Of a DNA stretch of 64,000 nt, positions 8,398 to 16,823 are shown in pieces. Below the pieces are notes generated by a model. It was not told the DNA's origin. It saw only the letters and a list, made by a program, of their open reading frames with translations, and made no database searches. Origin of the DNA: Alphaproteobacteria bacterium (lineage in GTDB: Bacteria; Pseudomonadota; Alphaproteobacteria; MPNO01; UBA830); assembly GCA_964291215.2 (NCBI GenBank), contig OZ219790.1, positions 1,440,001 through 1,504,000 on the forward strand, read 5' to 3'. The number at the start of each line of letters is the position of its first letter. Position 1 is the stretch's first letter. Made by a program: the position numbers and the translations under genes.

Positions 8398-9384
8398 TCA
8401 TTGCAGCAGATCGTCCTCGCCGGCGATGAAACGCGGCTCCTCGCCGACAAGCAGCCGGCGCGCGTTCTCGGCGCCGCGGCGGACAAACCCGGCGATGGCG
8501 CCATCGGTCATCGCCGAATTGTGCGGCGATGCGATCACGTTGGGTTGCTCAAGGAACGGATAGTCAAGCGCGAACCGGCCGTGGCGGATCGGCTCGACCC
8601 ACCAGGCCTCGAGACAGGCGGTGAATTCCGGCTGCGCCTGCAGGTGACGGTACAGGGCCCCCTGATCGACGATCTCGCCGCGCGCGACATTGACGAGGAT
8701 GGCGTCCCGCTTCATGCGCCCGAGACGGGCGGCATCGAGAATTCCCTCGGTCCGCCGCGTCAACGCCACCGTGATCACGAGGATGTCCGAGGCCTCCAGC
8801 ACCCGGTCAAGATCGTCGAGCGTGCCAATGAAATCGACCGGATCCTCCGTTCTCCCGGACCGGTTGAGCGCCTGGATCCGGACATCGAGGTGCCGCATGA
8901 GCCGTGCGACCTCGCGACCGGTCTGGCCGTAACCGAGAATGCCGCAGACCCGGCCGGCGAGACGCTTCGTCGACTTGAACTGGTTGAACTTGCCGCCACG
9001 CATCGCCTCGTGTTCCTGTGGCAGGCGCTTTGCCGCACTCAGGGCCATGGCCAGCACATGCTCGGCCATCGGTTCGGCATAAGCACCGGCGTTGTAGGCC
9101 ACCGAGATATGGCCGGGCCAGGAACGGAGCGGCAGGAAGTCAATCCCCGCGGTCAGGCACTGGAGGAGCCGGCAGTTGTCGAGCCTGCCAATGGCGTCAC
9201 TGCCGAGATCGGTGAAAGGATCGTAGCTCAGCAGAACGTCACTCGCGCGAAGGACGGCGTCGCGATCGCTATCCTTCTCGTCAGGCCAGTAGCGAATCTC
9301 GGCGATGTCCGCCAGCGCGTCCGCTATCGCTGCGCGCTCCGCCGCTCTGGCGGCGAAGGTCACGAGCACCGTCGGGCGCGTCAT
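8398..9384 (-). CDS. D-isomer-specific 2-hydroxyacid dehydrogenase
   Basis: GILGYGQTG Rossmann motif, LVNVARG and SPHNS motifs. Confidence 0.88.
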   Translation of the reverse strand: MTRPTVLVTFAARAAERAAIADALADIAEIRYWPDEKDSDRDAVLRASDVLLSYDPFTDLGSDAIGRLDNCRLLQCLTAGIDFLPLRSWPGHISVAYNAGAYAEPMAEHVLAMALSAAKRLPQEHEAMRGGKFNQFKSTKRLAGRVCGILGYGQTGREVARLMRHLDVRIQALNRSGRTEDPVDFIGTLDDLDRVLEASDILVITVALTRRTEGILDAARLGRMKRDAILVNVARGEIVDQGALYRHLQAQPEFTACLEAWWVEPIRHGRFALDYPFLEQPNVIASPHNSAMTDGAIAGFVRRGAENARRLLVGEEPRFIAGEDDLLQ

Positions 9385-9484
9385 GGCGCAATCCGGCCCC
9401 GATCCGGCTTCGCAGGCGGGCGTGCGGCCGCACCGAGCATCGCGTCCAAGTCTTGACTTTCCATCTCTTCCTGATCCCTCCGGC

Positions 9485-10577
9485 TCAGTCGCGAATGTCC
9501 TGTAGGAACCACTCGGTGGGAATCGTCCGGCCGCGCCCTTCGGCGAGCGCCTTGCGATAGACAAGGCCGCCGACCGCGACGAACCGGAGGCCCTGGTTGC
9601 CGACATTCTGGTAGAAGGTGATTTCGGTTTCGGAACTCCGTCCCGGCGACGAGGTCGCAATAATCGGGATAGGCCATCCGAAAATTGCTCCGCCCGCGGC
9701 TCTGCAGCGGCAGGCGCCGCATCTCGTCGTCGGTGCCCGCGATGAAGGCCATCGGCGAATGGCCTACGCCGCTTTTCAGGCGTGTGCCTCCCTTGACCTC
9801 GATTCCCGGAGTTCCCTGGCGAATTCGAACGTCTAAGCGCTCGAGCGCGGCGCGGCTGATCTCGTCCGGGCCGAGATTGGTGACGTGCATGCCGGGCTCT
9901 AGCCAGTCCGCCTCGAAAGTGGGCTCCATCGAATCCGTCGCAGGCGCGAGAATATCGACGCCGCGCACCGCTTCGCGGGCGCTGTCGACCGGCACGACCT
10001 CGACTCCGAGTTCGCCGCCCATCTCCTCGGCGAAACGCTCGCGGTTTGCCGGCGTCGGGCTGTAGACCTTCACGCTCTCGATTCTGCGCACGGCGCAAAA
10101 TGCCTCGAGGTAGGTGTGCGCCATGCCTCCCGAACCGAGCAGGCCGACGACGCCGGAATCGCTCCGCGACAGATGGCGCACACCGATCCCGGCCCCGCCA
10201 CCTACCCGCACGTGCTGGATCACACCGTCATCGATCACGGCCAAGGGCTCGCCGTTCCGGATCGAGAACAGGGCGTCGAGCCCGCAATGGGTTCCCGGCT
10301 CGACGCAGTACTTGTCCTTGCTCCAGCGTCCCGAGGCATCGCGCGGCCAGGTGATGACGTCGGACTTCATGCGGATCGCGAAGATTCCGTCGAAGACGCC
10401 TTCCATGGTGCCCCAGCGATAGTCTCCGTCATCGCGTTCGCACGGCGCGTACATGTCGAGGCGGGGCCGGTAAGCAGCGTTTCCGGACGGGATCGCGCAG
10501 AAGGCCTGCTCCTGGACGTCTATGCAATCCTCTATCGAGAGGAGTTCGGCAACAAGGGCATTGTCGATTATCAGCAT
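9485..10577 (-). pseudogene. Ornithine cyclodeaminase/mu-crystallin family protein, frameshifted near the C-terminus
   Basis: RVGGGAG, GLLGSGGMA and DWLEPGMHV motifs. The conserved tail EITFYQNVGNQGLRFVAVGG...EWFLQDIRD* lies in another frame after about 9640 and ends at 9485. Confidence 0.75.
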
Positions 10578-12674: not shown

Positions 12675-13595
12675 TTACGGATTGCGCCAGCGGCCCCCGC
12701 TCGTGGCGATGATGTTGGCGATCACCCGGTCGATGATCCGGCGCACGGCGCGGGACACGTTGGTTTCGAGGTAGTCGGAAGCGCGGGCAAAGTAAAGCGT
12801 ACGCGATACCCGCGGGCGGGCAATGCGCATGGCCGAGAGCCGACCGGCCTCGGCCAGGGACTGGACCGCGGCGAAAGGCAGGATCGTCGCGCCGATGCCG
12901 CCCTCGACGAGTTCGCGCATCGTCGCAACCGAGTTGATCTCGAGACAGATGTCGAGCGACAGGCCGCGTTCCCGCGCCGCCGTCTCGACGGTCTCGCGGA
13001 GCCCGAACCTGGCCTCGGGGAGGATCAGGCGCTCACGGCTGGCCTCGCTGAGGGACACCACCGCTTCGCGCTCCGGCGCCCGCCCCGGGCGCACGAGATA
13101 GAGGTCCTCGACCAGGAGCGGCTCGGCCACGATGCCGCGAGCGGCCGCGGGATTGTAGGTAAAGCCAATGTCAACCGAGTTCTCGTCCAGCCTCTGCATG
13201 ATCTCCTCGCTCATGCCCTCGACGAGCTTGAGGGCGATTTCGGGATGGGTGGCGCGGCACGCGGAGATCACCGGTGTCGCCAGCAGCGCGGTCGCGGTCG
13301 GCGTGATGCCCAGCGCGATCTCGCCCCGCGGCGGGCCGGAAAGGTCGGTGACCTCGTGGCGCGCGCGCTCGACCTGGCGGATGATGGCGACGGCATGCTT
13401 GAGAAGGAGCTCTCCTGCCTCGGTCGGCTCGACCCCCCGCGAATGCCTGACGAGGAGCAGCGTTCCGAGTTCCTCCTCGAGCTTCTTGACCTGGGCCCCG
13501 AGCGCCGGCTGGGCGACACGCAGCCGGTTCGCAGCGCGGGTGAAGCTGCGGGCCTCGACGATTTCCGCGAAATAGCGAAGCTGGCGGATGTCCAT
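12675..13595 (-). CDS. LysR-family transcriptional regulator (Nac-like)
   Basis: MDIRQLRYF...SFTRAA..LRVAQPAL..QVKKLEEELG helix-turn-helix. Confidence 0.93.
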   Translation of the reverse strand: MDIRQLRYFAEIVEARSFTRAANRLRVAQPALGAQVKKLEEELGTLLLVRHSRGVEPTEAGELLLKHAVAIIRQVERARHEVTDLSGPPRGEIALGITPTATALLATPVISACRATHPEIALKLVEGMSEEIMQRLDENSVDIGFTYNPAAARGIVAEPLLVEDLYLVRPGRAPEREAVVSLSEASRERLILPEARFGLRETVETAARERGLSLDICLEINSVATMRELVEGGIGATILPFAAVQSLAEAGRLSAMRIARPRVSRTLYFARASDYLETNVSRAVRRIIDRVIANIIATSGGRWRNP

Positions 13596-13638
13596 CCTTG
13601 TCCTTCCATCGCGATTTGCTATATGTTTCGGCCTCATC

Positions 13639-13653
13639 ATACAAAAACGCTAT
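13639..13653. promoter_or_regulatory. Putative LysR autoregulatory box (ATA-N9-TAT)
   Basis: ATAcaaaaacgcTAT lies between the lysR start and the divergent MFS gene. Confidence 0.5.
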
Positions 13654-14148
13654 CTATCGGCCACCCGGTCGCGGGACGGCGTCCGGACGGCAGCGTTGTC
13701 GGAAACCGGGCGCGGCCGGACGCATGGCGACCGGCCACGGGAATTCCGGCGCTTGTGCGGCCCCGAACCGTGTGCAAGCCTTGATCGCGGGAACCGGTGT
13801 GGGCGGGACGGCAGGAGAGACGGGTCGTGACGAGCAGTTCCGCGCTTTTTCCTGCCGGCGCAGATTTTCAGCGGTGAGCGCTCCCCGCGAGGCGGCCGAC
13901 ATCACGCCATTGAACCGGCTGGCTATCTTCGCGGCCGGCTTCTTCAGTCTGAGCCAGATCCCGATGATGACGCTCATCGTGCCGCTGTGGGCGGCCGACA
14001 TCGGCGCCGGCCCGCTGTGGATCGGAATCGCGGTTTCGCTGCGCGCCGCCCTTGCGATGGTCTTTTCGATCCAGGCCGGCGCGCTGATGGACAGGCTCGG
14101 CACTGCCCGGGTCTGCAGCGTTCTCGGCGTGGCCGCCGCGCTGCTCGC

Positions 14149-15850
14149 GTCGGGTAGGCCGCTGGCGCGCGCATCCTTAGGCGGAGGCTTTATCCGTCAC
14201 CGCTCTTTCGATTGCGGGCGGGTTCGCAGAATCGCCATAGACCACGTTTCCAGCAGCCCCCCTAAAATTCCGTACGTCCGGTTTTCCCGGTTCAAGCATC
14301 AGGCACCCACTTGGAGTTCGGTGCGAAGCCTTCCCACGCCATGGTCAAGGTCGGGTAGGCCACTGGCGCGCGCATCCGTAGGCAGAGGCTTTGTCCGTCA
14401 CCGCTCTTTCGATTGCGGGCGGGGTCGCAGTTCTCCCATAGACCACGTTTCCAGCAGCCCCCCTAAAATTCCGTACGTCCGGTTTTCCCGGTTCAAGCAT
14501 CAGGCACCCACTTGGAGTTCGGTGCGGAGCCTTCCGCCGGACACGCCATGGTCAAGGCTGACCCAACCGTACCCACGGCATCTCCGAGCGTTTGCTCCGT
14601 CCTTCGACCTCGCGGCCTTTGTCGGTCGGTGCCAGTTTCTGAGCACTGGCGTTGACCTACCGCGGAACAGGCCACCTGAGCCCTGAGGTCCTCGCTCAGG
14701 ACGGGTTGTGTTGTCCCGCCCGTCAACGCTTAATCAACCTCATCCGCCAGTCAGGAGGACTCCGCGTCCTTTCCCGTTTCCCGGTTATGGACGCGGTCCT
14801 TGACATTCAAGGGTCACTTCATCCTGTCCGTCCTCCTCACCTTCCGATCTTTCACTGCTGTACTGTCCCGGATTGCCGCCGTCTCTACCACCGGGGAACC
14901 CGATGCGTGCTCTCCAGTTCTTCCGCATCGACGCTGGCCATCGGGCAGTCAGCAGGCCCTTGGCATTCCCGTTTACCCCACTAATCAGCTTCGTGTGGGA
15001 TGGTTATTTCGGGGCTTCATCCAATCGTTCGCTTTCGCTGCGGCCCTCCGGTTTGCTCGCCGCCCTGGCTGACCGAACCGGCTGGACACTGTGTTCCAGC
15101 CAGCCCACAACGGCTTTCTACGTCCCAGCTCGCTGATCCAGGGTCACCCCTGAACCAATGCTACGGCGCCAAACTGGAAATTGCGCCGGCGGGACTCGCA
15201 CCCGCAAGTACAGCATCTAGACTCGCTGCACGCTGACCCAACCATACCCACGGCATCTCCGAGCGTTTGCTCCGTCCTTCGGCCTTGCAGTCTGTCGGTC
15301 TGCGTACCGGCTTGACCTGCCGCATAGGCTACCTGAGCCCTGAGGTCCTCGCTCGGGACGGGTTGTGTTGTCCCGCCCCTTAGGCGACCTCATCCGCCAG
15401 TCAGGAGGACTCCGTGTCCTTTCCCGTCTCCCGGTTATAGACGCGGTCCTTGACGGGTCTCTTCATCCTGTCTGTCCTCCTCACCTTCCGGTCTTTCACT
15501 GCTGATCTGTCCCGAATTGCCGCCGTCTGTACCCCGGGGAACCCGATGCGTGTTCCTCAGTTCTTCCGCATCGACACTGGCCATCGGGTAGCAACCTTGG
15601 CGTTCGCCGTCTATCCCACAATCAGCTTCGTGTGGGTGGGGAATTTCGGGGCTTCCCGTTCGCTTTCGCCCTCCGGTTTGCTCGCCGCCCTGGCTGACCG
15701 GACCGGCTGGACATTGCGTTCCAGCCAGCCCACGACGGCTTTCTACGTCCCAGCTCGCTGATCCAGGGTCGCCCCTGAACCAATGCTACGGCGCCAAACT
15801 GAGAATTGCGGGACTTTCACCCGCAAGATCAGCAGCTAGACTCGCTGCAC
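14149..15850 (-). mobile_element. Outer ORF-less group II intron (about 820 nt without the nested intron)
   Basis: Minus strand starts GTGCAGCG at 15850 and ends CCTACCCGAC at 14149. DV/DVI-like GGAAAACCGGACGTACGGAATTTTAGGGGGGCTGCTGG. No RT ORF. Confidence 0.85.
14350..15231 (-). mobile_element. Inner (nested) ORF-less group II intron, 882 nt, paralogous to the outer intron
   Basis: Same termini (GTGCAGCG...CCTACCCGAC). Removing it restores ggtcaag|gctgaccc, the sequence found intact inside the inner copy at 14550-14564. Confidence 0.85.
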
Positions 15851-16823
15851 GCTCGCCTATCCCCTGTGGCCCTCGATCAGCGGCCTGCTGCTGTTGCAGA
15901 CCCTCCTCGGCTTCCTGCACGTCACGTGCTGGATCGGCGCCCAGGCCATGATCGGCACCCTCGCCGGCGGCAACCCGGGGACCATGGGCCGCTTCACCTT
16001 CGTCACCACGCTCGGCACCTTCCTCGGCCCCCTCCTGGTCGGGCTGGTCTGGGAGTTTCTCGGACCGTGGGGCGCCTTCACGCTAGTGTCAGGCTGGTCG
16101 CTCGCCTTCGCCCTGACCGCAGCCGCGACCCCGCGCGCTGGCGGCGCCGCGTCCCGCGCGTCTGTCCGACCCGCGGACCTGGCCCCGAAATGGGCCGACT
16201 ACGCGGCCGGCTTCGGGCTTCTGCGGTCGCCGATCATCGCCTGCTTCATGGTGATCTCCGCCGCGCTTGCCGCCACCTACGCCATGCGCCACACCTTTCT
16301 TTCGGCCTTTCTCGACGGGATCGCGTTTCAGGGCACCGAGATCGGCATCATCTTCGGCTCAATGGCCCTTTCGGGCGGCATCGCGGGCCTGACAGTCGGC
16401 TATCTGTCGCGTTATGTCCGGCCGCACTGGCTCACGATAGCGGCGACCGTGCTCGGTGCCCTGAGTTTCTCGACCCTGCCCCTGTTTACGGGATTCTGGG
16501 CGCTGCTGGCCGTGTCCCTGGCAACCGGAATCTGCACGGGACTGGCCTTCCCGCTGGTCCTGTCGATCCTGACCCGGGAAATATCCATCGGCGACCAGGG
16601 GCTCAGCGCCGGACTGCGGTCCACGACCAACAGGACGGCATCGCTGACGATTCCGGTGATCATGGGGGCGGTGATCGCCGCCACCGACATAGCGTTTGGT
16701 TTCTTCGTCATGGGCGCCGTCGTCATATGCATCGTCGCGGCGCCGGTGCCGTTTCTCGTGCGCGCGCTCAGGCGCGCGAGCCATTCCTGAGACAGGACGC
16801 GCCGCTGGCGGCAGCACCCGCCG

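Follow-up and report, generated by a model that had tools for sequence, protein, structure and literature searches.

The window, the whole 64,000-nt stretch of DNA that was analysed (G000:C1:1440001-1504000), contains an MFS transporter gene interrupted on its antisense strand by a group II twintron (Table 1). An outer element that runs from 15850 to 14149 on the minus strand is split by a second minus-strand element, its paralogue, of 882 nt. Both begin with GTGCAGCG and end with CCTACCCGAC, and the outer element holds the inner one at the junction between GGTCAGC and CTTGAC, with no duplication of the target. A reading made earlier from the sequence alone had described two minus-strand paralogues with shared ends, the inner placed precisely inside the outer; ends and junction are as it claimed. 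One intron thus lies precisely inside another on the same strand, as in a group II twintron, and the arrangement is repeated at G000:C2:128654-126933, where a second twintron has the same junction in a different flank. The inner introns of the two differ by 8 substitutions and the outer introns by 7 substitutions and 3 indels. The twintron is real, and the contigs listed for the sequencing runs, X1-X4 among them, include none that bridges the inner/outer junction. The outer limits are fixed by the empty site, since exactly 1702 nt are passed over in contigs from runs X3 and X4; in G001, which is 93-95% identical, the insertion site is contiguous. The MFS junctions are present in runs X1 and X2, with identical flanks in X1. 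Because the MFS gene lies on the plus strand, the twintron is antisense to it, an orientation that had been missed, and an intron antisense to a gene cannot be spliced from that gene's mRNA. Sequential splicing does not restore the host gene here, the twintron being antisense and without its DV triad, and the outer insertion likely inactivates the gene. Elsewhere in the window, a minus-strand gene at 9381-10577, which we take to be ornithine-cyclodeaminase-like, is frameshifted relative to G001 by an 11-nt deletion (gap at 9647), and further gaps of 6 and 7 nt relative to G001 lie at 13892 and 13715.

Table 1. Features of the twintron and of the gene that it interrupts (positions in the window).
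Feature	Position	Strand	Basis
First (5′) segment of the MFS transporter gene, which probably starts at GTG; broken by the antisense twintron	13874..14148	+	Single 418-codon open frame after in silico intron removal
MFS transporter gene, 3′ part	15851..16790	+	Pfam MFS_1, E 1.5e-11
5′ exon of the outer intron (IBS2/IBS1), antisense strand of the MFS gene	15851..15864	-	EBS1 5.5/6 using the intact loop; EBS2 5/6
Variant B, the outer ORF-less group II intron, 5′ segment with DI-DIII and the beginning of DIV	15232..15850	-	Weak RF02003 match; domain layout from consensus fold
Outer intron, 3′ part: remaining DIV, damaged DV, DVI	14149..14349	-	3′ end set by empty-site contigs
Variant A1, the inner ORF-less group II intron (882 nt), lying in domain IV of the outer	14350..15231	-	RF02003 44.3 bits, E 4.7e-08, below gathering score 49
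The inner intron's target site, within the outer intron	15232..15245	-	12/12 pairing
Inner EBS2 (UAACCAU)	15000..15006	-	Register and permutation tests
Inner EBS1 (GCUGAC), loop of d3 hairpin (14937-14964)	14948..14953	-	Hairpin fold; sole register with 5.27/6 mean pairing
Inner EBS3 (G), pairs with C at 14349	14885..14885	-	Column Watson-Crick with first 3′-exon base in 32/37 elements
Inner intron's own copy of the target, T-to-C at 14569 mismatching its own EBS2, unoccupied	14557..14570	-	Alignment of copies
Inner DV remnant; 7 nt of triad-bearing strand gone between 14492 and 14491	14467..14494	-	Comparison with intact relatives
Inner DVI, long stem, predicted branch A 7 nt from 3′ end	14350..14462	-	Fold -47 kcal/mol, z -2.16
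Outer EBS2 (UUCCCCA)	15637..15643	-	Covariation test
Outer EBS1 loop remnant; 6 nt gone between 15595 and 15594	15589..15596	-	Intact loop in G000:C2:153677
Outer EBS3 (C); its partner, read on the intron's strand, is G at 14148	15529..15529	-	EBS3 column
Outer DV remnant; same 7 nt gone between 14291 and 14290	14266..14293	-	Comparison with intact relatives

[quoted passage not shown] The consensus fold, built from 10 elements of 71-95% identity, comprises DI-DVI with a non-coding DIV of ~190 nt and a long DVI, in which a bulged branch A is predicted at -7. DV folds with the AGC triad and AC bulge at all 25 loci of intact relatives. The family starts with GUGCAG, not GUGYG, and ends with AC, a fit to the AY expected at group II 3′ ends. 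In a column-pairing search delta is a nearly invariant U, with several columns tied for delta′. All 37 complete elements parsed are 820-899 nt long, and the spacer between IBS1 and IBS2 is 2-3 nt. By its predicted structure and exon pairing the element is a group II intron of IIB type. RF00029 gives no DV/DVI match in the family, intact copies included, so surveys based on DV, such as the pipeline outlined in passages of PMC8919778, would likely miss it; at gathering score, Rfam finds only two tRNAs in the whole window.

The assignment of two loops of the inner copy as EBS1 and EBS2 had been made at the right coordinates, and both register and permutation tests agree with it. With the d3 loop, exon positions -1 to -6 pair at 5.27/6, compared with 3.38 for the runner-up register. 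When EBS and IBS were tabulated across copies, as had been suggested, covariation was apparent over 12 variants from several genomes, each counted once: EBS1 formed 5.19/6 pairs, against 2.93+/-0.33 after permutation, and EBS2 4.93/6, against 2.69+/-0.33, scores reached by none of 100,000 permutations in either case. These values derive from the 29 of 46 starts that have a full d3 hairpin and EBS2 segment; the other 17 had the hairpin deleted, truncated or unparsed, and 9 of them, deleted B copies, were scored separately. The weakly pairing variants L045 and L039 were retained, and flank pairing is poor in these two and in some single copies. EBS3 was added to the tabulation, and the three C-C exceptions in its column are B copies whose 3′ exon has apparently lost 6 nt. 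Between the inner intron (A1) and the DIV site of the outer, EBS1 and EBS2 together pair at 12 of 12 positions and EBS3 pairs as well, which bears out the proposal that the inner guides specify their own family; no position in a scan of one strand over 1.5 Mb of contig C1 equals this 12/12 score.

For the outer intron the earlier assignment held in part. Its EBS2, placed in the GGGGA region, stands, and the segment GGGTAGC read as EBS1 is instead a deletion remnant. The EBS1 loop is 6 nt short in the outer intron and in 9 of the 10 B copies, so the match with the MFS exon is only partial; the intact B loop, GCUUGC, found in copy C2:153677, pairs with that exon at 5.5/6. Nor is the MFS site the main target of this variant, since 7 of 10 B copies lie in domain I of an RT-encoding intron family. 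The notion that the family varies only its guide loops also fails, as inner and outer differ by 64 substitutions along their whole length and by several indels. Taken together, the alignments and predicted folds show a family in which the ribozyme scaffold, with its structured and non-coding DIV, stays the same and the guides are exchanged.

The family is represented in G000 by 20 5′ ends and 13 3′ ends, and in other genomes by 25 loci; it also occurs at 18 metagenome loci with a related DV, many cut by contig ends, and in further genomes. Searches of 60 relatives, of plasmids and of viral contigs did not find it. Judged by the flanks read, 8 of the 12 variants have a group II intron as their site; for 3 the site is other DNA, and for 1 it is ambiguous. 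The RT-encoding family mentioned above, with ~60 copies in G000, houses all three A2 copies as well as the seven B copies, whose usual site is in domain I, and the host introns checked (L029, L038, L110) match RF02005, not RF02003. The reverse nesting is also seen: at G000:C1:2334692, C1:1752240 and C2:1604600-1610800, RT-encoding introns sit inside ORF-less copies, at four different positions. Two distant relatives from other metagenomes were noted (L061, L055), one ending inside the apparent DVI of another group II intron and the other beside a short palindromic repeat.

Two variants target their own family, one in domain IV (A1, in the window) and one at the DV/DVI junction in G061 (A4, with EBS1 GCCCCC, nested at that junction of its own family and found in two different outer variants). 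On this comparison of guides and flanks, self-targeting has arisen at two sites. We also tried L045 as a third self-targeting variant and rejected it, its best family site pairing at 10/12 with 0.38 expected by chance. At L045 a complete element is followed directly by the 3′ two-thirds of another, and the 5′ flank fits the guides of the second; this is possibly a collapsed nest. L050/L051 (G061:C2:3769200-3772760) consists of two whole twintrons arranged head to tail in a single target site, which may reflect a tandem duplication or a circular intermediate. The DIV motif targeted by A1 (14557-14575 of the window, minus strand) is a small hairpin conserved in members down to 72% identity and is a candidate binding site for a helper protein.

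With no ORF in 37 complete elements and no intact or cognate RT found in G000, the family appears non-autonomous, as had been proposed. The search that had been suggested for a cognate RT-encoding copy gave none: BLAST detected no ORF-bearing copy of the ORF-less family in G000, and the 19 RT matches there are all partial or broken, those examined belonging to the invaded intron family. The RT introns of G000 (for example C2:3402931) occupy, in ~60 copies, one conserved site of a repeated element, which by its appearance is presumably an IS66-type transposase gene; several are head-to-tail tandems, and an intact RT frame was found in none of the ~60. Other genomes, in which RT extraction covered 4 of 8 loci, present a range of situations. 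G061 contains 13 near-identical copies of the ORF-less family with intact DV, together with 16 full-length RT matches, near-identical to one another, of which the one read is of the invaded-family type, and 2 partial ones. In G062 there are intact RTs of both the invaded-family (RF02005) type and the RF02003 type, and the ORF-less element is inserted into domain I of introns whose RT frame is intact. G063 has the ORF-less element and no RT match. The one RT scanned, that of L110, combines RT and maturase domains and gave no match to an endonuclease. In G000 the G-rich strand carries family starts in 18 of 20 cases and, for the RT family, 59 of 69 ends, nested copies not being independent. This bias fits the fork-coupled retrohoming of endonuclease-less introns treated in passages of PMC4424553 and PMC8919778.

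We consider it very probable that two ORF-less group II introns from one family make up the twintron at this locus, EBS1, EBS2 and EBS3 of the inner intron exactly matching a site in domain IV of its sister, and that it formed by guide-directed retrohoming with an RT supplied in trans. Reverse splicing would have placed the intron RNA in the DNA at replication forks, and it would have been copied by the RT/maturase that an endonuclease-less intron in the same genome encodes. Variant B, which normally homes into domain I of the RT intron, would have struck the antisense strand of the MFS gene as a near-cognate site.

Decay appears to have followed. Both copies in the window have lost the same 7 nt of DV, which the sequence-only reading overlooked together with the 6-nt loss in the outer EBS1, and the strand bearing the catalytic triad is gone in 13 of the 13 G000 copies that reach DV, compared with none of the 25 loci from other genomes. 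Set against an intact G061 copy, the G000 copies show 11 deletions of at least 5 nt, each measuring 6, 7 or 12 nt; of these, two are common to 12/12 complete copies, and two show a four-gamete pattern among B copies. Within the RT family DV is deleted in 37 copies and intact in 14. Repeats of at least 3 copies make up ~30% of G000 (745 regions, 1.8 of 6.15 Mb) and are eroded by 5-7 nt deletions with mosaic sharing; in 120 of the 745 regions, taken as a sample, gap lengths peak at 5-7 nt. Such a pattern hints at gene conversion biased towards deletion, or at a process that removes 6-7 nt. The RT intron copies of G000 range from 1434 to 1835 nt with few substitutions, and a B-type copy at G000:C2:97377-94960 has its DV split by a 1.6-kb transposase-bearing insertion. 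Precise insertion requires a working DV, from which we infer that DV was lost after insertion and that the loss then spread by gene conversion or recurred. Deletions of 6-7 nt would have passed among paralogues until the DV triad was lost from all G000 copies. Because 13/13 copies reaching DV lack 7 nt of it, the twintron and the other G000 copies are now likely fossils.

Two readings would remove or simplify this history. The 7-nt DV deletion, or the nest, might be an artefact of assembly or polishing, the real copies being catalytically intact. An identical deletion in 13/13 copies, across three variants and unrelated sites, is odd, and among the contigs listed for run X1 only intact DV is seen, at depth 738. 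However, contigs of this run, which is possibly the source sample so that its support is not independent, contain five other deletions of the outer intron (records 6 and 7; depth 340 and 409), and X1 matches 13400-14177 without a difference, including two places where G001 has 6-7 extra bases. X1 also holds intact-DV copies of the G061 type, with loose ends that match L050 and L131, and contigs of this kind drop one side of a bubble, so the missing deleted DV was not counted as proof of an artefact. With a genome completeness of 99.3%, and a nest that recurs in another flank and follows its guides, an artefact seems quite improbable. It is also unlikely, though less so, that the nest formed once, after which the composite, an outer intron with the inner one in its DIV, moved or was copied whole, leaving the two twintrons as one homing event. 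DIV is peripheral, so an outer intron could splice while carrying a passenger; both outers are variant B and 99% alike, and G061 provides a tandemly duplicated twintron (L050). Yet the outers are not each other's closest copies, lying 7 substitutions apart where C2:128654 is 3-4 away from copies that are not nested, 8 positions distinguish the inners, and the inner variant of G061 occupies two different outers. Even a single origin still requires one guide-directed insertion, and guide-directed homing of one sister into another remains the preferred account.

The identity of the helper and the meaning of a mismatch shared by the self-targeting variants are more evenly contested. We give somewhat less than an even chance to a helper encoded by a closer, RF02003-type RT intron, lost from G000 or supplied from elsewhere, in place of the RT of the invaded family. 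RF02003-type RT introns with a similarly long DVI do exist in G062 (L156, 456-aa frame), and in passages of PMC2882425 the helper of Thermosynechococcus comes from the nearest relative; on the other side stand the 13 near-identical, intact-DV copies of G061, where the one RT read among the 16 near-identical full-length matches is of the invaded-family type, and among 150 candidates scored per genome no RF02003 hit lies beside an intact RT in G000 or G061. As for the mismatch, each of the two self-targeting variants carries a single one in its own copy of its target site. In G061, matched sites are occupied in 6 of 7 cases and mismatched sites in 0 of 6 (Fisher p 0.005), or 5/6 versus 0/5 when the tandem duplicate is set aside (p 0.015). 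The base altered in A1 does not vary among the remaining 9 of the 10 diverse elements that were aligned, and the G-to-A change of A4 preserves DVI pairing (A-U instead of G-U). These observations only suggest that a single mismatch in its own target keeps a self-targeting variant from entering itself. It is equally plausible to us that the mismatch is a neutral lineage polymorphism and that deeper nests are missing since recombination collapses them. The A at the DV/DVI junction is found as well in variants without self-targeting (L175, L180; G000:C2:931508), the T-to-C change in two A2 copies, and the mismatch is common to six G061 inner copies and so may be one mutation; in G000 the contrast in occupancy is 2/7 versus 0/6 (Fisher p 0.46). 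Since the DV search patterns demanded a G-run at the DV/DVI junction, they cannot demonstrate conservation of that base. An ATGGCT allele in two G000 copies was rejected as an escape allele, being common in distant members. In the truncated copy G000:C2:1604293, the guides pair best with the mismatched ('escape') DV/DVI allele, at 11/12, where 0.008 such matches are expected per element and 15 variants were tried; its own flank mismatches its guides, and we regard this copy as a lead at most.

The basic arrangement, an ORF-less intron in an ORF-less intron with families set apart by EBS, is already published for Thermosynechococcus elongatus, whose TeI3/TeI4 introns form families of ORF-less copies with distinct EBS1/2/3, in passages of Mohr, Ghanem and Lambowitz (2010; PMC2882425). 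As described there, one family enters a conserved DIV site of its sisters, ORF-less ones included (TeI3i in TeI3h), other families target IS or intergenic DNA, and an RT acting in trans mobilises them. The present family is likewise without an intron protein and has many precise insertions, as the 5′ ends in G000 attest; a close RT-encoding intron in the same genome, as in the TeI3 case, was not found in G000. Other differences emerge from the same passages. Those ORF-less introns are deletion derivatives of a resident RT intron and retain ORF remnants, whereas here no ORF-bearing member was found, DIV forms a structured RNA whose conservation extends to members of 71% identity, and a different Rfam D1 model (RF02005 versus RF02003) is matched by the RT introns that are invaded. 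Self-targeting here occurs at two sites, and self-avoidance is absent from those passages. Introns also nest in introns in Methanosarcina acetivorans (Dai and Zimmerly 2003, via passages of PMC4424553), with repeated site-specific homing into group II introns, some of them ORF-less, and nests balanced by recombination; to go by the title, insertion there is into the ORFs of related introns, whereas the ribozyme domains DI, DII-III, DIV and the DV/DVI junction are entered here. The twintron of Trichodesmium erythraeum (Pfreundt and Hess 2015, passages of PMC4649490) is likewise a bacterial group II twintron in a protein gene; it lies in sense, both of its introns have an ORF and it splices in vivo, whereas the present one is antisense, ORF-less and without the DV triad. 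RF02003 introns resemble the family in their 5′ domain I, which exceeds the cut-off in intact relatives, and RT-encoding L156 shares the long DVI; RF02003 RT introns differ from it in that the family here has no ORF. What appears to be new is repeated self-targeting with apparent self-avoidance; a literature search found no report of self-avoidance in group II introns.

The arrangement is thus already in print and the copies in the window are likely dead, which bounds their significance. ORF-less bacterial group II introns are under-counted, as the standard DV model misses this ORF-less family; passages of PMC4424553 had raised the caveat before. A compact, natively retargetable ribozyme may be of interest for targetron work. 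The family supplies at least 12 naturally occurring guide/target pairs on a single ribozyme of ~880 nt, and it opens to testing both the reach of an RT/maturase across intron lineages and the immunity of an intron to its own guides. A broader view, which we hold to be doubtful and offer tentatively, is that these are RNA-only group II satellites, widespread, which borrow the RT of another ribozyme lineage and wage an arms race of guides on themselves: guides would evolve against conserved family sites, one structure-neutral mismatch would give self-protection, and counter-variants, with the truncated copy C2:1604293 as the candidate, would respond. If true, this arms race would be target immunity encoded in base pairs, in a ribozyme retroelement.
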